Part shown: one piece after another, positions 5,605 to 62,210 of the stretch
Position numbering within the stretch: position 1 is the first letter of the stretch
Layout: each line of letters starts with the position of its first letter
DNA from: Prevotella sp.
Lineage (GTDB): Bacteria > Bacteroidota > Bacteroidia > Bacteroidales > Bacteroidaceae
Assembly (NCBI GenBank): GCA_022788105.1
Contig: JALEVZ010000053.1
Span: 36,858 to 100,857, forward strand
Reading direction: 5' to 3'
Length of the DNA: 64,000 bases
Translations under genes and position numbers: made by a program
Notes under the pieces: model-generated
Told to the model about the DNA's origin: nothing
What the model saw: only the letters and a program-made list of their open reading frames with translations
The model's database searches: none

Positions 5605-5763
5605 ATAACTTTTTGAAATACAGCCAAATTTGTCGTTTACAAAATGCACATTCCGCACCCTTATGTGCACACAATATGCATTTTGTGCAAGGTTAGTAGT
5701 CTGCTCCAGACAAATCAACTGTAAACCGCAAATGTCACGATGAAAGCACTTTCGCCGTTTAGC

Positions 5764-5928
5764 TGACACTTTGCTACTATTTCGGGGCAAAATCTGACGC
5801 TAATTCTTAACGTCTGTTAAAAGCTCCATGCCGTTCCCACTACGGCCCTTTGACGTCGTCACTACGGCCCTTTGACAAGCCCATTAGGCCCCTTTGACAA
5901 GCCCAAAGAGCCACTATCATTTTGTCAA
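5764..5928 (+). repeat. 165-bp dispersed element, copy 1
   Basis: TGACAC head, TTAAC-gtct-GTTAA, four 22-bp units, TATCATTTTGTCAA tail. Confidence 0.9.
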
Positions 5929-6007
5929 CTCTGCCCAACGGCAAAACCTGCGCTACACGGCGGCTCTTTTAGCAACACCACACGGCGCGCACAACCAGCC
6001 CCCACCC

Positions 6008-9218: not shown

Positions 9219-9431
9219 TATTCCAAAGTCATGCTTTCTTCATTCCAAAGTCATGCTTTCTTCATTCCAAAGTCATGCTTTCTTCATTCCAAAGTCATGC
9301 TTTCTTCAATCCAAAATCATGATTCCTTCATTCCAAAATCATGATTCCTTCATTTCAAAGTCATGCTTTCTTCATTCCAAAGTCATGCTTTCTTCATTCC
9401 AAAGTCATGCTTTCTTCATTCCAAAGTCATG
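9219..9431. repeat. 22-bp tandem array, about 10 units of CATTCCAAAGTCATGCTTTCTT
   Basis: Units start at 9219, 9241, 9263…9417; two internal variants read AAAATCATGATTCC. Confidence 0.95.
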
Positions 9432-9446
9432 TCTTTTTCTTCAAAA

Positions 9447-11197: not shown

Positions 11198-11433
11198 GAA
11201 GAAGAAAAAACGGGAAGTGGAAGAAGAAAAAACGGGGAAAAGATGATAAAAAGGCAGGAAGCAAAAGACGAAAAGGCAGGAGACAAAAGACGAAAAGGCA
11301 GGAAACAAAAGACGAAAAGGCAGGAACCAAAAGACGAAAAGGCAGGAACCAAAAGATAAAAAAACAGGAAGCAAAAGGCGAAAAGGCAGGAAACAAAAGA
11401 CGAAAAGACAGGAAGCAAAAGACGAAAAGGCAG
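11198..11433. repeat. 22-bp tandem array, 10-11 units of AAAAGACGAAAAGGCAGGAA(A/G/C)C
   Basis: Visible period of 22, degenerating toward 11198. Confidence 0.95.
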
Positions 11434-11500
11434 AGTCTACCTGCCATTACAGCCCTTTGACAACACCAAAGAGTTGTAATGGCAAAGCCACTCTGCCTTT
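11426..11500 (-). terminator. Long hairpin terminator after the GNAT/C-N hydrolase gene
   Basis: AAAGGCAGAGT…TGCCATTACA…TGTAATGGCA…ACTCTGCCTTT. Confidence 0.65.
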
Positions 11501-11519
11501 ATCAGATGCTAAAACAACA

Positions 11520-14993: not shown

Positions 14994-15321
14994 AACGATG
15001 TGTTATATTTGGTTAATAATGTTGTTTGTTGTCTAATTGGTAATACCTGGCTTTACGGTTAAGTCACAATTGTTTACGCCTCAAAATTACAAATAATTAT
15101 TTTATTCTGCAAATCCTTATTTACAGTTCTTTCACACAAATGTCGCCGATTTGTGATTAAACATCTCCACGCGGTGCTTAAACGGTATAAAATCGTGCTT
15201 AAAATTTTATCAAGACAACACTGGCAGACATCGAAAACGCGCCCACGACACCCCTCTGCCGCGACGAAAACGATGCATCGCAGAAAGCGCTACACACCCC
15301 TCCGTTTCCGACTACTGCCGT

Positions 15322-15486
15322 TTGACAAAATGATAGTGCCCTTTTGGGCGTGTCAAAGGGGCCTAATGAGCTTGTCACTACGGCCCTTTGAGCGTGTCAT
15401 TTGGGCCTAATGGGAAATCCGCGAGGCTTTTAACAGACGTTAAGAATTGGCGTCAGATTTTACCTCCATATTGTAGCAAAATGTCA
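15322..15486 (-). repeat. 165-bp dispersed element, copy 2 (inverted)
   Basis: TTGACAAAATGATAG…TTAAC-agac-GTTAAGAATTGGCG…ATGTCA. Confidence 0.9.
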
Positions 15487-15729
15487 GCAAAACCCACATG
15501 AGAGCTATCATTGTGTCATTCGCGGTTTTCAACAATATCGGGCGGTGGTGTCACGTCGCCATCGCCACTTGCAGACGAGGCCGTCGCCCCGTGTAAAAAC
15601 GGCATAAAAAGACAGCGCCCTACAAGGGCAACGGCAGCACAGCGCAAGTCGCTGAACACAAATACCGTTGTCCCTGTAGGGCGCATTGTTTTATCTTTTG
15701 TTTTACTCCGCCCGTCGGCGGTCAAACGT

Positions 15730-16917: not shown

Positions 16918-18441
16918 ATGGAACTGATTATTGGCATAACAGCGCTGATGGCAGGCATCGTCGCTGGCACATTGATTGGCATGATGGGCCAAAAGGGCAG
17001 ACAACAGGCGCTGCAAACGCAGAACGACATGCTGCAACAGCAGCTCGCCGACGCTAAGAACGAGGCGCAGCGACAGCTCAACGATGCTAAGACTGAGAGC
17101 CAGCGACAGCTCGCCGAAGCTAAGGAGGAGGGTAAAAACCTGCTCACCGACGCGAAAAACGAGGCACAGCGACAGCTCGACAAGGCGAAAGAGGAAGCAC
17201 AGCGACAGCTCAACGACGCGAAAGAGGAGGCGCAGCGGCAGCTCGACAAGGCGCTGAAGGACAAGGACGAAGCATGGAAAAAGGTGCTCGACAGCCAGGA
17301 GAGCAGATTCAACGAGACGCTCAACCGCATGACGGAGCAGATGAAAAACGCTACCAACGACATGCTGAAAGAGCGACAGAAGGAGTTTGCCGACTCCAGC
17401 AACGAACAGCTTGGACTCATTGTCACACCGCTGCGCGAGACCATAGACAAGATGAAGCTCACCATGAGCGACACCACGCTGAAGCAGACGGAGATGAGCA
17501 GCGCGCTGAAGCAGAACATAGAGATGGCGATGCGACAGTCTATGGCGGCGAAACAGAGTGCCGACGAGCTGGCGAGGGCACTGAAGCACGGCAGCAAAGT
17601 GCAGGGCGACTGGGGCGAGACGGTGCTCGACGAGCTGCTCACGGCGCAGGGGCTGCAACGTGGCATACACTACGACACGCAGGCTGTCATACGCGACGGG
17701 CACGGCAACGCCATACATACCGACGAGGGCGGCACACTGCGTCCCGACGTCATACTGCACCTTGACCAGCGCCGCGAGGTGATAATAGACTCTAAGGTGT
17801 CGCTGACGGCATTCATGGACTATGCCAACGCCGACAACGAGACAGACCGCCAACGCTATCTGAAGGCTCATATCGACAGTCTACAGAAGCACGTGAAGGA
17901 GCTGTCGGAGAAGGACTACTCGTCGTATGTGCTGCCGCCGAAGGTGCGCATGGACTACGTCATAATGTTCGTGCCACACACTGGAGCGCTATGGACGGCT
18001 CTCAACGCGCAGCCAGACATGTGGCGCAAGGCTATGGAGAAGGGTGTGTTCATTGCCGATGAGCAGACGCTCTTCGCCGCATTGCGCATCATCAACATGA
18101 CGTGGACACAGATTAGACAGGCAGAAAACCACGAGGAGGTGTACCGACTCGCCAACGAAATGATTGACCGCGTGGGGCAGTTTGTGAAGAAGTTCAACGC
18201 CATAGGCAAGGCGCTGAAGTCTGCTGGCACCGCCTTTGAAGACGCAGAGCGTAAGCTTCAGCCCAGCGGGCAAAGCATTCTGCTTACTTGCGCCAAGCTA
18301 CAGAAGCTCGGTGCGAAGCAGAGTGAGAAGAATCCGCTGCCGCAAATCATCGACCTCGACGACATTCCTGCCCTCGAAGAAGGCACGACAGATAGCGACG
18401 ACAATGCCACAACAAATAGCGACGACAATGCCACGACATGA
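16918..18441 (+). CDS. rmuC: DNA recombination protein RmuC with an expanded 11-aa-repeat coiled coil
   Basis: N-terminal TM; QGDWGE, RPDV, IIDSKVSL, DYVIMFVP. Confidence 0.92.
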   Translation: MELIIGITALMAGIVAGTLIGMMGQKGRQQALQTQNDMLQQQLADAKNEAQRQLNDAKTESQRQLAEAKEEGKNLLTDAKNEAQRQLDKAKEEAQRQLNDAKEEAQRQLDKALKDKDEAWKKVLDSQESRFNETLNRMTEQMKNATNDMLKERQKEFADSSNEQLGLIVTPLRETIDKMKLTMSDTTLKQTEMSSALKQNIEMAMRQSMAAKQSADELARALKHGSKVQGDWGETVLDELLTAQGLQRGIHYDTQAVIRDGHGNAIHTDEGGTLRPDVILHLDQRREVIIDSKVSLTAFMDYANADNETDRQRYLKAHIDSLQKHVKELSEKDYSSYVLPPKVRMDYVIMFVPHTGALWTALNAQPDMWRKAMEKGVFIADEQTLFAALRIINMTWTQIRQAENHEEVYRLANEMIDRVGQFVKKFNAIGKALKSAGTAFEDAERKLQPSGQSILLTCAKLQKLGAKQSEKNPLPQIIDLDDIPALEEGTTDSDDNATTNSDDNATT

Positions 18442-26864: not shown

Positions 26865-26930
26865 CGCCACAAGGCTGCACTATAGCGGAAAAGGCCCGCG
26901 GACAAAAAGACAGCGCAACGCGGCTTTTTG

Positions 26931-27095
26931 TGACACATTGCTACGATTTCGCAGCCGCAGCTTACGCCAATTCTTAACAAGCGTTAAAAGACAGTTGACA
27001 TTCCCATTAGGCCCCTTTGACGTCCTCATTAGGCCCCTTTGACGTCGCCAAAGGGCCGTAGTGACAACGCCAAAAAGGCACTATCATTTTGTCAA
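26931..27095 (+). repeat. 165-bp dispersed element, copy 3
   Basis: Same head, palindrome (TTAAC-aagc-GTTAA), four units and tail. Confidence 0.9.
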
Positions 27096-27120
27096 TCGGG
27101 CCTAATCATAAAACAACTAA

Positions 27121-29219: not shown

Positions 29220-29329
29220 TCGTCAATAAGAACAAGACTGCTCGTCAATAAAGACAAGACTGCTCGTCAATAAAGACAAGACAGTTCGTCAATAAAGACA
29301 AGACAGTTCGTCAATAAATACAAGACAAC
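29220..29329. repeat. 22-bp tandem array, 5 units of TCGTCAATAAAGACAAGAC(TGC/AGT)
   Basis: Units at 29220, 29242, 29264, 29286, 29308. Confidence 0.95.
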
Positions 29330-33487: not shown

Positions 33488-33546
33488 TTATAACAATGTG
33501 GAGAGAAAAGCGAAAATACACAAAGAAAGCAACACGGCGCTTTTAG

Positions 33547-33711
33547 TGACACATTGCCACATTTCCGCCGCTTAAACTTACGTCATTTCTTAACATTAGT
33601 TAAAAGCCGCGTGCCATCCCCACTACGCCCCTTTGAGCGCGTCATTAGGCCGTAGTGAGCGCGCCACTACGCCCCTTTGACAAGCCCAAAAGGGCACTAT
33701 CATTTTGTCAA
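33547..33711 (+). repeat. 165-bp dispersed element, copy 4
   Basis: TGACACATTG…TTAAC-atta-GTTAA…TATCATTTTGTCAA. Confidence 0.9.
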
Positions 33712-33779
33712 CAGAGCCTAATCAGAAATCAAGGGCATTTATTACAGTCTGCCAAAGCCCATTCATAGTACAAACAACA

Positions 33780-42608: not shown

Positions 42609-42684
42609 CATCCACACCCCGACAGACGCGTAAACACCCCGTCTGCTGGCTTCGATATAATAGTCGTTTGGGCATAAGGCCCAT

Positions 42685-42849
42685 TTGACAAAATGATAGC
42701 ACCCATTTGAGATTGCCAAAGGGCCGTAGTGACAAGCCCAAAGGAGCCCTTTGGCGTCCTCAAAGGGGCCCTTTGAGGATGCCGCGGGACTTTTAACAGA
42801 CGTTAAGAATTGCGTTTACAAAATCACGTTATTTCCTTACATTGTGTCA
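42685..42849 (-). repeat. 165-bp dispersed element, copy 5 (inverted)
   Basis: TTGACAAAATGATAG…TTAAC-agac-GTTAAGAATT…GTGTCA. Confidence 0.88.
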
Positions 42850-42965
42850 CATTTTACCCGCTTTTGCTGACACATAGGTTTTGTCACTTTTTCCCAAAAC
42901 CCACTTCTCACCACCTTCTGCACCCATCCATCACAGCATCAATACTTTGCGCCACCGCTACGACG

Positions 42966-45384: not shown

Positions 45385-47250
45385 ATGAACGAACTTAAAA
45401 TAGGCGCCACCCTACAAAACGGCAAGTACCGCATAGAGCACGTACTGGGTCAGGGTGGCTTCGGTATAACCTATCTCGCCACGCAAACAACACTCGGTTG
45501 CAAGGTGGCTATAAAGGAGTTTTTCTTTCAAGACTGCTGCGAGCGCCACGCTGACGACTCACGTGTGAGCGTGATAACGGCAAGCAAGCAGGAGCTGGTG
45601 GACAAGTTCCGCCGCAAATTCCTAAAGGAAGCGCGGCTCTTGCTTGCCATCAACCACCACAACATAGTGCGTGTGATGGACGCATTCGAAGAGAACGACA
45701 CCGCCTACTATGCTATGGAATACATCGAGGGCATCTCGCTCTCACAACTCATAAGCCAGAAAGGACGCCTCACGGCAGCCGAAACGCTCACCATAACCGA
45801 CTCCGTGGGCCAGGCTCTCGTCTATCTGCACGCACGAAACATAAACCATCTCGACATCAAGCCTGCCAACATAATGATTGAGAACGGCACGGAGCGCGTG
45901 CTACTCATCGACTTTGGCGTGTCGAAACAGTACGATCCAGAGACAGGACAGAGCACCACGACCACGCCGGTAGGTGTCAGCCACGGCTACGCGCCACTCG
46001 AACAGTACAACAACGGCGGCGTACAGACATTCTCTCCACAAAGCGACGTCTACGCCCTCGGTGCCACAATGCTGAAGATGTTGACCGGAATAACGCCCCG
46101 AAACGCCGTAGAGCTGTCGCAACAAGGCGGTCCCACCATCGCGGCGGACGTCCCCGTAAACTTCGCGGCAGCCATACGCGCCGCCATGCAGCCCGTAAAG
46201 GCAAACCGTCCGCAGTCTGTACAGCAGCTGTTGACCATCCTCCACGACGGTCCAACAGATGAAGAGGCGACGGTGGTAGGTGCAATTGGCAATGCAAACG
46301 GCACCTCGGGAGCAGCAAACGGAGCCTCCAACGCGACCAATAATGACGCAGCGGGAGCAGCAAACGGAGCCTCCGGCAACGGCAGCAACGCCTCAAGGTC
46401 TGCCAACGGCAAAGCCAAGCAGATGTTTATTGGCCTCGCACTGGCACTCGTCTTTGTCGGTTCAATCTTCTATCTCGGCACCGACCGCAACAAGACAGAC
46501 ACAACAGACAACATCATGGCTGCCGACAGCGACACCGTAGCGATAGACTCCGTAGCGGTAGAAGAAGACACCAACGTCTACACCGAGAGCTTCAGCCAAA
46601 GCATAAAAGGCAAGATGGACAAAACAAGTCTTAGCATTGAATATCCCACATCGGGTCCAGAGCTGCTCGTGCAGAACATACGCGAGTGGATAAACGAGTC
46701 GTTAGGCGGAAAATATAACGGCGATTTGAGCGACGGAAAAGCCCTCTTCAACTTATACTTCGGCTCCTTGAGACGCGAGATGACAGAAAATTCGGAATAC
46801 GAAAACTACAACCAGGTGACCATAAAGAAGCTGTATGAAAACGACAAGATAGCCACGTTCGTCTGCGAATCCTACTTCTACGGCGAGGGAGCAGCCCACG
46901 GCATGTCGAGCACCATGGGCGTAACGTTCCGCAAATCAGACGGACGCAAGTTCACGGTCAGCCTGCTCGATGGCTCCTACAAGTACCAAAGCGAGATAAA
47001 AACGGGCTTAAAGAAATACTTTGAGCTATCTTCCGACGAAGAGCTCATGGGCCGTTTGATGCTTAACAAAGACGCCGGCAGCGAGATACCGTTCCCCAAA
47101 AATGACCCGTGGATAACGGCAGCAGGCGTCGTGTTCTGCTATTCGGAATACGAGATAGCATGCTACGCCGACGGCATGCCTACCTTCACTATACCCGAAA
47201 GCGTAATAAAGAAGAAGAGTGCCGCCACCACACAGACATTCCTTGAATAG
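45385..47250 (+). CDS. Ser/Thr protein kinase - TM - DUF3298/RsiV(PdaC)-like domain
   Basis: GQGGFG, HLDIKPAN, DFG; TM; YGEGAAHG and YSEYEIACYADGMP motifs. Confidence 0.88.
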   Translation: MNELKIGATLQNGKYRIEHVLGQGGFGITYLATQTTLGCKVAIKEFFFQDCCERHADDSRVSVITASKQELVDKFRRKFLKEARLLLAINHHNIVRVMDAFEENDTAYYAMEYIEGISLSQLISQKGRLTAAETLTITDSVGQALVYLHARNINHLDIKPANIMIENGTERVLLIDFGVSKQYDPETGQSTTTTPVGVSHGYAPLEQYNNGGVQTFSPQSDVYALGATMLKMLTGITPRNAVELSQQGGPTIAADVPVNFAAAIRAAMQPVKANRPQSVQQLLTILHDGPTDEEATVVGAIGNANGTSGAANGASNATNNDAAGAANGASGNGSNASRSANGKAKQMFIGLALALVFVGSIFYLGTDRNKTDTTDNIMAADSDTVAIDSVAVEEDTNVYTESFSQSIKGKMDKTSLSIEYPTSGPELLVQNIREWINESLGGKYNGDLSDGKALFNLYFGSLRREMTENSEYENYNQVTIKKLYENDKIATFVCESYFYGEGAAHGMSSTMGVTFRKSDGRKFTVSLLDGSYKYQSEIKTGLKKYFELSSDEELMGRLMLNKDAGSEIPFPKNDPWITAAGVVFCYSEYEIACYADGMPTFTIPESVIKKKSAATTQTFLE

Positions 47251-47334
47251 AACACAAACAAGCACCATATAGCACACAAGCAAGCACCATATAGCACACA
47301 AGCAAGCATCGAATAGCACACAAACAAAGACCAC
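47247..47334. repeat. 22-bp tandem array, 4 units; the first contains the kinase stop codon
   Basis: atagaacacaaacaagcaccat / atagcacacaagcaagcaccat / atagcacacaagcaagcatcga / atagcacacaaacaaagaccac. Confidence 0.9.
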
Positions 47335-49604: not shown

Positions 49605-49646
49605 AAAATGCGATTTGTCACAATGTAAGCGACATCGCTGTTTCGC

Positions 49647-49811
49647 TGACACATTGCTACGTTTTAGTGCGTTCTGCTTACGCCAATTCTTAACGAGTGT
49701 TAAAGCAGCAGCGAACTTCCCACTACGCCCCTTTGGGCTTGCCACTACGGCCCTTTGACATCGTCATTAGGCCGTAGTGACAACGCCAAAGGGGTGCTTT
49801 CATTTTGTCAA
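49647..49811 (+). repeat. 165-bp dispersed element, copy 6
   Basis: TGACACATTGCTAC…TTAAC-gagt-GTTAA…TCATTTTGTCAA. Confidence 0.9.
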
Positions 49812-49977
49812 TCGGCAATAGTGGCAAAATCATCAGCCACAGACCACTTTTCACAAACGCCACACCCATCTGCCAATTAGCACCCCTTTGGACATCCGTC
49901 GTATTGTTTTTTTTAGTAAGTTTGCAATCAGATAAAGACGCGACACACCATGACGTGTCGTAAAGAAAGGTCTACAG

Positions 49978-51811: not shown

Positions 51812-51855
51812 ACGATAACATAACACGTCAAGAACGATAACATAACACGTCAAGA
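51812..51855. repeat. Exact 22-bp tandem duplication in the response regulator 5' UTR
   Basis: acgataacataacacgtcaaga x2. Confidence 0.95.
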
Positions 51856-52544: not shown

Positions 52545-52560
52545 GCAAGAGAAGGAGCTT

Positions 52561-52626
52561 CTTTGGAGGCGAGATTTGGTATCTTTGGAGGCGAGATTTG
52601 GCATCTTTGGAAGCGAGATTTGGCAT
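52561..52626. repeat. 22-bp tandem array, 3 units of CTTTGGAGGCGAGATTTGGCAT
   Basis: Units at 52561, 52583, 52605. Confidence 0.95.
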
Positions 52627-52689
52627 CCAATAAAGCGCCATTAGCCCCATTACGAAGCACAAATAGTCTTATAACAAAAATCAAAAACT

Positions 52690-56140: not shown

Positions 56141-56191
56141 ACAAAGAAAAACGGTCTTTTGCATAAAGAAAGCAAAAGACCGTTTTTCTTT
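56141..56191. terminator. Terminator after the TraB/GumN gene
   Basis: AAAGAAAAACGGTCTTTTGC…GCAAAAGACCGTTTTTCTTT. Confidence 0.8.
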
Positions 56192-56354
56192 ACATTATGA
56201 TAGAAAACAAAGCGCTTTTGTAACGCCAATTCTTAACGTCTGTTAAAAGCCCACAGAGATTGCCAAAGGGGCCAAATGGGCTTGTCACTACGGCCTAATG
56301 AGCTTGTCACTACGGCCCTTTGACAACGCCAAAAGGGTGCTATCATTTTGTCAA
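56190..56354 (+). repeat. 165-bp dispersed element, copy 7 (head degenerate)
   Basis: CGCCAATTCTTAAC-gtct-GTTAAAAG, four units and tail at the conserved spacing. Confidence 0.85.
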
Positions 56355-56417
56355 ACGGCACTAACGGGAAAATGATCACCGCCCGACCGTTTTTCAAAAC
56401 CTATAGATTCTGTCGGG

Positions 56418-56517: not shown

Positions 56518-57333
56518 CTACTTCTCGAAACGACACTTGCAATAGACGCAACCGTTGTCCTGTTTGAGCAGGCTGTACGGCTTCATGCCGAGGAAGTGGC
56601 GGCACTGCGGGTTCGGACACACATACTTGTGTTGGAACTCTTCGGTCAACTTGTCGAGTTCGTCGATGCTCTTGTCGCTGTAAGCCATGTAGAATGCATA
56701 GATTGTAACGGCAAGACCCACGAAGAAAAGCACGGTTGTAGCGTCTGTCACCATGGGGCTGACGCCCGATATGCGCGACACGGCGCCGCTGCTGATGGTG
56801 AATATCGGCGCCACGCCTCTGAGCAGATTGAGGTTGCGCTGGCGATATTTTATCTCCATTTGCTTGTCGTGGAACTCGTCATATACAGCTTTCAGATGGT
56901 CTATGCTGAACGTCGGCACATTCTCTGATGCACCACCACCGCTCTTGACAGCGCTGCCACCGCCTATCACCTGGTTGGCAATGAGCGTGAGAGTCTTCAG
57001 CACTTCCGCCACAGACACTTGGTACTTGTACTGTCCCATCTCTATGATGCTGCCCTCGTCGATGTGCTTCTTCATAATCTGTGTGCCGTCGACAAACGTC
57101 ACATTCTCTGCTTTGGCGTTCTCGAGAGTCATGTCTCCCTTCATGTCTATCTGCAAACGGCAGTGCGCCTTGTCCTCGCCGGGTATGCAACGGCTCACAC
57201 CTCCCGACACGCTGCCGGGCTGTCCTATCGGTGCGAAGTAGTTTTTGCCGTTGTGTTTCATCGACACCAGCAGTCTGCCGTTTACTGGTTCGCGTCCTAT
57301 GAGTATGGTCTTTCCAAAAAGTCTGTTGTCCAT
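56518..57333 (-). CDS. FHA-domain membrane protein with a C-terminal Cys4 zinc ribbon
   Basis: IGR…VSR…H…NVTFVDG FHA pattern; two hydrophobic segments; CPNPQC…CVYC. Confidence 0.8.
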   Translation of the reverse strand: MDNRLFGKTILIGREPVNGRLLVSMKHNGKNYFAPIGQPGSVSGGVSRCIPGEDKAHCRLQIDMKGDMTLENAKAENVTFVDGTQIMKKHIDEGSIIEMGQYKYQVSVAEVLKTLTLIANQVIGGGSAVKSGGGASENVPTFSIDHLKAVYDEFHDKQMEIKYRQRNLNLLRGVAPIFTISSGAVSRISGVSPMVTDATTVLFFVGLAVTIYAFYMAYSDKSIDELDKLTEEFQHKYVCPNPQCRHFLGMKPYSLLKQDNGCVYCKCRFEK

Positions 57334-57414: not shown

Positions 57415-57810
57415 TTATTCTCCTTTCTCTTTCTCCACCACAGCCGATGAGCACAACGTGCTGACATACATCTCCTTGAGCTTCTTCAACGCCTCTTTGG
57501 AGATGCTCACGGGATAGGCAAACAGCTCCCCGTCGCTCAACACGAGCTTCTGTTTGAGCACGCTGATGTGGTAGACGTAGTCGAGATTGACGATGTGTCG
57601 CTTGCCGACACGTGCAAACACAGTGCCTGCTTCGTGCAGATTGTCGTTGATAAGCTTCTGCATTTGCGCGAGGTTCATGCACACCGCACCCTTTAGTTTG
57701 TTGCTCAAATAGAAGTTCGTATAGTTGCCTTCTGCTTCGAAATAGACTATGTGGGCGATGTCAATCTTATATAACTCGTCGCGGCTATTGATATAAAGAT
57801 ATTTTCTCAT
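57415..57810 (-). CDS. Stand-alone LytTR DNA-binding protein
   Basis: IVYFEAEGNY, FARVGKRHIVN; no receiver domain. Confidence 0.88.
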   Translation of the reverse strand: MRKYLYINSRDELYKIDIAHIVYFEAEGNYTNFYLSNKLKGAVCMNLAQMQKLINDNLHEAGTVFARVGKRHIVNLDYVYHISVLKQKLVLSDGELFAYPVSISKEALKKLKEMYVSTLCSSAVVEKEKGE

Positions 57811-59090: not shown

Positions 59091-59205
59091 CAATTTCTTG
59101 CGCACATTCTGCCACCTGTCTGCCGTTTTTTTAAGTAAAAACGCGATGAAAGAGAAATAGGCAGAAAGCGACAAGACACAAAGAAAGCAGAAACCACGGT
59201 TTTAG

Positions 59206-59370
59206 TGACACATTGTCACGATTCCGTCGTTTCTGCTTACGCCAATTCTTAACACATGTTAAAGCCGCGGTGGTTTTCCCACTACGGCCCTTTGACATCG
59301 CCATTAGGCCGTAGTGACATCGTCAAAGGGCCGTAGTGAGAAGCCCGAAAAGGCCCTATCATTTTGTCAA
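59206..59370 (+). repeat. 165-bp dispersed element, copy 8
   Basis: TGACACATTG…TTAAC-acat-GTTAA…TATCATTTTGTCAA. Confidence 0.9.
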
Positions 59371-59396
59371 TCGTGCCCTTTGACAAAACCACACGC

Positions 59397-62090: not shown

Positions 62091-62210
62091 AGGAGAAATG
62101 ATGGGAGAAATGAAGAAGAGGGATGGTAGATAGAAAGGGAGGGAATAGGAGGAAGAAAGAAGAGGGATGAAAGTAAGTAAGAGGAGAGATGACAGAAAGG
62201 AAGAGATGGT
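62091..62210. repeat. Purine-rich degenerate repeat with 44-bp recurrence
   Basis: agaagagggatg at 62114 and 62158. Confidence 0.55.

Follow-up and report, generated by a model that had tools for sequence, protein, structure and literature searches.

A three-word code in intergenic elements of a Prevotella species is one dialect of a genus-wide mosaic scaffold

Prevotella are dominant bacteria of the gut and rumen, and their non-coding DNA is almost unstudied. Here we describe a code of three six-base words, usable in either orientation, that is one species' dialect of a mosaic intergenic element found across the genus. The stretch of DNA that we analyzed, 64,000 nucleotides long and referred to below as the window (contig C113:36858-100857), belongs to a 2.49-Mb, 130-contig assembly with 51.7% G+C whose relatives are uncultured Prevotella. 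The organism lives in the pig gut; each of 14 sequencing runs from eight studies contains at least 73% of the sequence words sampled from a 10-kb stretch. The words in its elements are discrete, form a set closed under reverse complement, are seldom joined into palindromes, are constrained relative to the neighboring spacers, are stable between strains, and are exchanged for other words in other species, and the units that carry them turn over. The reading that we favor, which we think has about an even chance of being right, is that the half-sites, or arms, are selectively maintained modules for a reader acting in trans, a local dialect of the genus-wide element that changes by slow block exchange.

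The window contains eight copies of the element (Table 1), which align without a single gap; a 17-mer matches the window 20 times at three or fewer mismatches, compared to 0.22 matches expected. The order of parts is a hairpin-like 5' region, a TTAAC-N4-GTTAA box, a free 16-nt spacer, three variable units of 22 bp, and a fourth unit fused to a conserved tail that ends in ATTTTGTCA. Each unit is a 15-mer, in which two arms overlap a 3-nt center (GGC or GCC), followed by a 7-nt linker; the original prediction had read this layout of half-site, center, half-site and linker, and it is present in the sequence at 5838-5925 as described. The arms are spaced 11 bp apart in alternating orientation, a 4-bp inverted skeleton (GTCA...TGAC) brackets each unit, and the array of units aligns significantly to its own reverse complement. 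In copy 1, units 1 and 2 (from 5838) both read CACTAC-GGC-CCTTTG, with the linkers ACGTCGT and then ACAAGCC; unit 3 reads CATTAG-GCC-CCTTTG and again has the linker ACAAGCC; and unit 4 is the conserved CAAAGAGCCACTATC with the linker ATTTTGT. The combinations that had been listed for copy 1, for copy 7 (CACTAC/CTAATG, linker GGCTTGT) and for copy 8 (59280-59345), together with the flipped linkers, are all correct.

A profile built from these eight copies finds 136 full-length copies genome-wide. Two conserved anchors, AATTCTTAAC and ATCATTTTGTCA, are separated by 114 nt in 124 of ~134 copies; the distance is 136 nt in five copies and 158 nt in three, corresponding to one or two additional units. 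The conserved stretch extends from ~66 nt upstream of the first anchor to ~145 nt past that anchor's first base, ~210 bp in total, and the elements, which are intergenic, make up ~1% of the genome. Between head and tail there is a weak internal 10-bp inverted match (8/10), past both sides of which conservation continues. We saw no evident target-site duplication among 45 element flanks, no autonomous partner among partial matches to the element, and no adjacent recombinase gene near the copies examined. Short-read contigs (Logan, four pig-gut runs) break at every element; the element disrupts short-read assemblies, and it also marks sites of strain-specific accessory segments.

Table 1. Coordinates of the element copies, related arrays and neighboring features (window positions unless a contig is named)
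Feature	Position	Strand	Details
Element copy 1	5736..5947	+	anchor AATTCTTAAC at 5802; units 1-4 at 5838-5925; tail end TTGTCA at 5927
Element copy 2	15303..15514	-	units 1-4 run from 15412 down to 15325
Element copy 3	26903..27114	+	units 1-4 at 27005-27092; begins ~40 nt past the stop of a 2546-aa ORF
Element copy 4	33519..33730	+	units 1-4 at 33621-33708
Element copy 5	42666..42877	-	units 1-4 run from 42775 down to 42688; two rare CAAAGG...CCTTTG units
Element copy 6	49619..49830	+	units 1-4 at 49721-49808; linker 1 flipped (GGCTTGC)
Element copy 7	56162..56373	+	units 1-4 at 56264-56351; linkers GGCTTGT and AGCTTGT flipped; degenerate head
Element copy 8	59178..59389	+	units 1-4 at 59280-59367; unit 1 is the exact reverse complement of unit 3
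Degenerate partial copy of the unit region	11440..11512	-	adjoins an unrelated 22-bp array at 11249-11433
Other 22-bp arrays, window examples	9220-9436, 11249-11433, 29220-29327, 47247-47327, 51812-51855, 52560-52627, 62100-62204		
Free-standing unit arrays	C94:26995-27228, C94:7258-7384, C119:3139-3295, C127:2980-3108, C114:21657-21773, C56:602-748		on genome contigs
Y1 transposase gene (PF01797; IS200-like or RAYT-like)	C96:323-781	-	152 aa, HVH motif; locus L250
FHA-domain protein gene	56518-57333	-	between copies 7 and 8
Solo LytTR protein gene	57415-57810	-	between copies 7 and 8; 131 aa, PF04397, E = 1.5e-10
In-frame 33/66/99-nt repeat	17041-17253		in a 507-aa ORF

To place the elements relative to genes, we used a crude, greedy set of open reading frames. 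Among 109 copies classified in this way, 37 lie between convergent genes, 32 are co-directional in sense, 22 are co-directional in antisense and 18 are divergent. Against a background of 133, 423 and 167, copies are overrepresented at gene 3' ends and underrepresented in divergent promoter regions. Placement is independent of the orientation of the element; 40 of the 109 are not sense-oriented behind a gene. A scan of copy 3 for canonical intrinsic terminators and sigma-70-type promoters, whose range does not extend to Bacteroidetes-type promoters, found neither. A candidate peptide on the reverse strand of the element was dropped, given that the 22-bp period shifts the frame and the words contain stop codons.

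Units of the element also occur outside it. We found ~16-20 free-standing homogeneous arrays of 3-9 units with neither element head nor tail and with up to eight canonical units. Those listed in Table 1 contain 3-8 canonical units, which within an array point either all in the forward or all in the mirrored direction; the adjoining sequence is similar to the spacer that precedes unit 1 in the element, and these arrays look like decayed copies in which the array has expanded. Arrays of variable length are seen only in free-standing or degenerate copies.

We tabulated the words in 369 units, namely units 1-3 of 123 copies. Three half-sites, CACTAC (124), CATTAG (106) and CAAAGG (83), fill 85% of the left positions, and five, CCTTTG (150), GTAGTG (119), CATTTG (35), CTAATG (17) and CAAATG (9), fill 89% of the right positions. 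Single-step intermediates between CACTAC and CATTAG are rare (CATTAC 8, CACTAG 1). The left 6-mers take 19 distinct forms (2.46 bits), compared to 96 forms (6.46 bits) for a 6-nt window of the spacer. Columns inside a word share 0.9-1.0 bit of mutual information, the strongest couplings in the element; by the same measure there is no long-range coupling between columns of the element. The proposal that whole words are exchanged, rather than drifting by point mutation, is borne out by these discrete states, by the near-maximal coupling within words, and by the fact that closely related copies differ by whole 15-mers; across the genomic copies the half-sites do not form a mutational continuum.

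Taking the reverse complement of the words leads back to the same set. The two most frequent 15-mers, with 70 and 56 occurrences, are exact reverse complements of each other; mirror forms therefore exist as had been proposed, and blocks of linker plus word are flipped as well. The center is tied to the arms, GG going with CACTAC and CC with GTAGTG, so the effective arms are ~8 nt long and have the central base in common. Linkers are of two types, one of which also occurs flipped. Position 3 is mostly ACAAGCC, and its reverse complement GGCTTGT is found at linker positions 1 and 2, where the neighboring words are mirrored. Genome-wide there are 344 canonical 15-mers, against 0.12 expected from base composition; full elements contain 301 of them and degenerate copies or free arrays the other 43, and none anywhere in the genome is truly isolated. 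The element copies are old: outside the word columns they diverge by 37% on average (9.5% for the closest pair, 16% for the next), and their words are still 85-89% canonical.

The combination of words is biased against palindromes. Exact palindromic units number only 7, compared to 79.7 +/- 7 expected (minimum 56 over 5000 permutations), which does not fit a simple homodimer reading palindromic sites, one form of the dimeric binder that had been suggested. CACTAC and GTAGTG never occur together in one unit, in part because this pair needs G and C at the same shared central base; a fivefold deficit of CAAAGG with CCTTTG is not explained by the shared base. Complementarity is depleted within units (z = -6 to -7) and from one unit to the next (z = -3.2 to -3.7), and linkers 1 and 3 show the same deficit toward each other (z = -3.6). 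More than 60 distinct three-unit arrangements occur.

How stable are the words over time? We compared orthologous copies between this genome and a conspecific strain from JGI metagenome Ga0129313, using contigs of 96-99% identity that span elements. In the eight copies available, a small sample, none of the 48 half-sites is swapped and the orientation is the same; the only changes in the 15-mers are single bases, at ~1.1% of positions, compared to 8.3% in the N4 loop and spacer (p = 5e-5). One degenerate copy differs by a 44-bp indel. A like contrast is seen between sister species from the rumen: across six orthologous pairs, again few copies, the 15-mers differ at 1 of 360 positions and the spacer at 17 of 96 (p = 1.4e-11), with linkers 3.2% and anchor arms 0.8% different. 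This is an unusual anatomy, in which words stay intact while the adjacent spacers randomize.

One metagenome contig, L204 (OLQW01007901.1), was left out of the strain statistics since it joins two different copies, C37:12000 and C113:23372, inside the unit array; it stems either from copies that recombined in another strain or from a chimeric assembly. At two further loci (L194:2314-6908 compared with C20:31224, and L159:1-1667 with C6:2524), only the element tail is present in this genome, whereas the conspecific strain has a full element, which indicates that rearrangement breakpoints lie inside arrays. The full elements are preceded by DNA that is missing here, 4.6 kb with a 1085-aa ORF in one case and a fimbrillin-like gene in the other. 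The 1085-aa ORF has no Pfam match, and the strain-variable segments beside the tail-only fragments contain no transposase.

Searching with a word-free pattern of the scaffold, in which an exact match spans 121 nt, we found at least 51 loci. At least 29 of them have the exact span, and these belong to 14 or more named metagenome-assembled genomes (MAGs) of Prevotella or Prevotellaceae from rumen, horse, human and pig. The layout is common to all scaffold loci and the vocabulary is particular to each species. Examples include AAAAGC/GCTTTT used with GAAGTG/CACTTC, AATCGT/ACGATT used with AAAAGT/ACTTTT, CAAAGAG/CTCTTTG, and TAAAGCG/CGCTTTA. In most dialects, arm ends rich in A or in T recur every 11 bp. 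Closure under reverse complement holds for each dialect; Ca. P. equi, for example, has AATCGT 16 times and AAAAGT 8 times as left arms, with 15 and 9 of the mirrored right arms. Two loci from a pair of more distant species have orthologous flanks and the same N4 loop but different words, and one of the two arrays is a 2 x 44-bp duplicate. Exact-scaffold copies number 1-9 per genome in six other genomes and 102 here, pointing to a large expansion in this species.

The dialect itself is local. A BLAST search with the element finds no match in 24 genomes of the same genus or in 16 of the same order, and the word 15-mer is at control level across 400 same-genus genomes, so that the family came into view only through the word-free pattern; in this genome, the commonest 15-mer has 242 matches at one or fewer mismatches. 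In a synteny comparison with other species, 9 of 45 flanks are found no more than 1.5 kb from an element of this genome, approximately the level expected by chance. A sequence search of a phage collection returned no match to the element, and our literature searches found no description of it.

The combination of constrained, phased motifs with free spacers, independence of orientation, and a single vocabulary per genome suggests a reader that acts in trans. We infer that this putative reader is a protein on duplex DNA with which the vocabulary co-evolves; arms phased at 11 bp along the duplex would be its simplest substrate, and a phased binding array with several accepted half-sites, as had been suggested, would be consistent with the fixed spacing as well as with the selective constraint. 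Most likely, the reader would bind DNA in a sequence-specific way, as one factor or as two factors or domains, and assemble on one face of the helix. Selection would keep a small, species-specific vocabulary, closed under reverse complement, from which the arms are drawn. Word replacement would be slow and blockwise, with no gradual drift, and would proceed either through the gain or loss of 22- or 44-bp units within the array or through rare inverted copying of a unit or a linker-plus-arm block; in this species self-complementary units and arrays would be removed. Turnover in place is supported by the 2 x 44-bp duplicate, by adjacent units that have the same 15-mer more often than chance, and by the 22/44-bp indels between strains. 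If such a reader exists, the dialects provide a comparative series for how a recognition code changes on a fixed scaffold.

Several observations count against a binder. Because the canonical 15-mers are never isolated, they offer no independent, regulon-type support for it. Three to four words that differ at 2-4 of four variable positions would be unusual for one DNA-binding domain. The avoidance of palindromes is particular to this species; in the other dialects such units are roughly as frequent as expected. Selfish repeats, too, usually land in this pattern of enrichment at gene 3' ends and depletion from divergent promoter regions.

More tentatively, the elements might be nucleoprotein assembly sites maintained by the host, with a vocabulary that co-evolves with a species-specific putative reader. 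In this fuller version, which we regard as possible though doubtful, the rule of two different words per unit would reflect a two-domain or heterodimeric reader, the dialects would be re-coded specificities, and the rise from fewer than 10 to ~136 copies would mark a new chromosomal role, for example insulation or organization at gene ends.

Could the same pattern arise with no function at all? The words might be alleles of a selfish MITE- or REP-like repeat, homogenized by slippage and short-tract gene conversion among the ~136 copies and ~20 free arrays, with dialects arising by drift. Conversion would be possible in either orientation, since the skeleton is a quasi-palindrome, and the significant alignment of the array with its own reverse complement fits this idea. 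So do the confinement of words to elements and arrays, the excess of adjacent units with an identical 15-mer (z = 5.4-5.6), the free arrays of 3-9 identical units, the gain or loss of 22 or 44 bp between strains, and the contig from another strain that fuses two different copies inside the array. We nevertheless consider function-free concerted evolution unlikely. The sister species have only ~9 copies per genome, and the near-identity of their 15-mers next to spacers that differ by 18% is conservation, not parallel conversion. Linker cores are diverse (26 of 64 possible triplets, 3.57 bits) although conversion tracts should cover them as well; no word was swapped in the orthologous half-sites of the two strains; and a deficit of self-complementary arrangements is not what drift predicts. 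If there is no reader, the element offers a clear example of concerted evolution acting on words of 6 bp, and in either case the dialects are species-specific markers.

The depletion of complementarity also weighs on a code in single-stranded structure, which we find more improbable again. Here the words would be stem halves, either of an RNA (a 3'-end stabilizer, terminator or sRNA) or of ssDNA hairpins that an HUH (Y1) transposase would recognize, like those of REP/RAYT systems, and closure under reverse complement would simply be base pairing. Indeed, the unit region folds better than dinucleotide shuffles on either strand (mean z ~ -3.9). This strength relative to shuffles follows from a vocabulary closed under reverse complement; since both strands fold well, single-strand structure is possibly part of the function. 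Linker 3 is able to pair with the conserved tail, and a metatranscriptome contig spans from the gene upstream into copy 6. The arrangement of words, however, is biased against pairing: real arrays fold at -33.2 kcal/mol, compared to -36.6 for arrays re-dealt from the same words, centers and linkers (p = 4e-5), and arrays re-dealt with their 15-mers kept whole are also more stable than the real ones (-35.9 kcal/mol, p = 0.002). Complementary word pairs within a copy are depleted rather than enriched, there is no long-range covariation, and none of the dialects examined has more palindromic units than expected. A single vocabulary per genome is not expected from independent compensatory change, and the 40 copies that are not sense-oriented behind a gene do not fit an RNA at 3' ends. 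Rfam returned no match at the gathering threshold, other E-values being at chance level. In this genome, the words are not a hairpin code, nor do they reflect RNA covariation.

A separate hairpin lies at the 5' side of the element. In other species (loci L073, L025, L024 and L126), it has 17-19 bp, is located 45-90 nt upstream of the TTAAC box, and shows compensatory differences between species, as a structural code would have it. In this genome it is weak (for example, window positions 5736-5775), and its arms are not significantly more complementary within copies than across copies (p = 0.14).

The transposase that a hairpin code would call for has one candidate, a Y1 transposase gene that is the only one of its kind in this high-copy genome. 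It sits at a contig end beside an RNase R-like gene; there are no words in the 322 bp to the contig end, and its other side abuts a gene. Three of 15 sampled same-genus genomes contain homologues, and a search of five other element-bearing MAGs found none. A REP/RAYT link is not supported, given that the only PF01797 gene has no flanking words and that its homologue was not found in the five other carrier genomes.

Active micro-inversion or phase variation, in which rapid flipping of half-sites or 15-bp units by a recombinase would make the code differ between cells or strains, would suit the nearly equal frequencies of the commonest 15-mer and its reverse complement, the flipped linker-plus-arm blocks and the inverted skeleton around each unit, but this rapid form of the micro-inversion in the original prediction is very improbable given that the eight orthologous copies keep the same words and orientation in a 96-99% identical strain, that 15-mers are preserved between sister species, that the copies examined have no adjacent recombinase gene, and that segments of 11-15 bp are, to our knowledge, shorter than known site-specific inversion synapses allow.

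Although BIME/REP, BrickBuilt and iterons are analogues of the element, it belongs to none of them. The nearest analogue is the BIME/REP mosaic of Proteobacteria, with its units Y, Z1 and Z2 and its associated RAYT genes, each flanked by the repeats in inverted orientation. Both have more than 100 extragenic copies enriched at 3' ends, and both use a few discrete unit variants, regular spacing, alternating orientation, typed linkers and a species-specific sequence; known BIMEs are reported to bind proteins (PMC2817692). REP units, in contrast, are imperfect hairpin palindromes of ~20-40 nt with a GT(A/G)G head, whereas ours are 15-mers made of two different 6-nt words, one of which contains GTAG with no adjoining hairpin. 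Here, unlike in REP/BIME, self-complementarity is avoided, a larger conserved scaffold holds a constant 3+1 units, and the single Y1 gene has no repeats beside it.

BrickBuilt, a MITE of Porphyromonas gingivalis, carries 1-22.8 copies of one drifting 23-nt unit between IS5-like terminal inverted repeats (PMC4596501). It too is an intergenic repeat of Bacteroidales with a spacer-free internal tandem unit of 22-23 nt, a non-repetitive leader and tail, and tens of copies confined to one species group. Our element differs in its fixed unit count, its combinatorial, invertible words and its ~136 copies. Identity with BrickBuilt was rejected; the terminal repeat is absent from the window and no sequence similarity was found.

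A third resemblance is to plasmid replication origins. The 22-bp iterons of R6K gamma or pPS10 are read by Rep monomers with two domains, and inverted half-sites are a separate binding form. The general features of iterons, a 22-bp period equal to two helical turns, about four tandem bipartite units and half-sites ~11 bp apart, are shared with our element, and the rule of two different words per unit would recall bipartite iterons. Iterons have one sequence in one orientation at a single locus beside a rep gene, however, whereas the ~136 loci here are chromosomal, mix words and orientations, and have unrelated flanking genes with no rep gene. The likeness may serve as a lead on how the array works, not as a sign of membership.

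The BOX elements of Streptococcus pneumoniae have the structure boxA-boxB(n)-boxC, in which the middle module is one 45-nt sequence in variable number. Like our element they are intergenic and modular, number more than 100, measure ~100-200 bp and repeat a middle module between conserved ends, but they have no vocabulary of mirror-image words and no 11/22-bp phasing. Invertons are recognized by the presence of both orientations within a population or between close strains, and here, between strains, 0 of 48 orthologous half-sites are swapped.

A period of 22 bp is common in this genome well beyond the element. Among 670 non-redundant tandem arrays, 295 have a period of 22, with 52 more at 44 and 10 at 66. 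Of the arrays with periods of 21, 22, 23, 44 or 66, 105 are inside the element and 312 are outside it; the latter have mutually unrelated units and are mostly intergenic. Such 22-bp arrays differ between strains by exactly 22 or 44 bp; at 51812, for example, 22 bp are missing in two other strains. This looks like a duplication process that acts on 22-bp segments independently of sequence, and the differences between strains demonstrate a mechanism by which units are gained and lost.

Two genes on the minus strand between copies 7 and 8 encode an FHA-domain protein and a solo LytTR protein. LytTR proteins bind direct repeats with a period of ~21-22 bp; we found no link between this gene and the mirrored words. 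Finally, the 33/66/99-nt repeat within a 507-aa ORF of the window is in frame and looks like a coding repeat of the coiled-coil type, unrelated to the 22-bp arrays.
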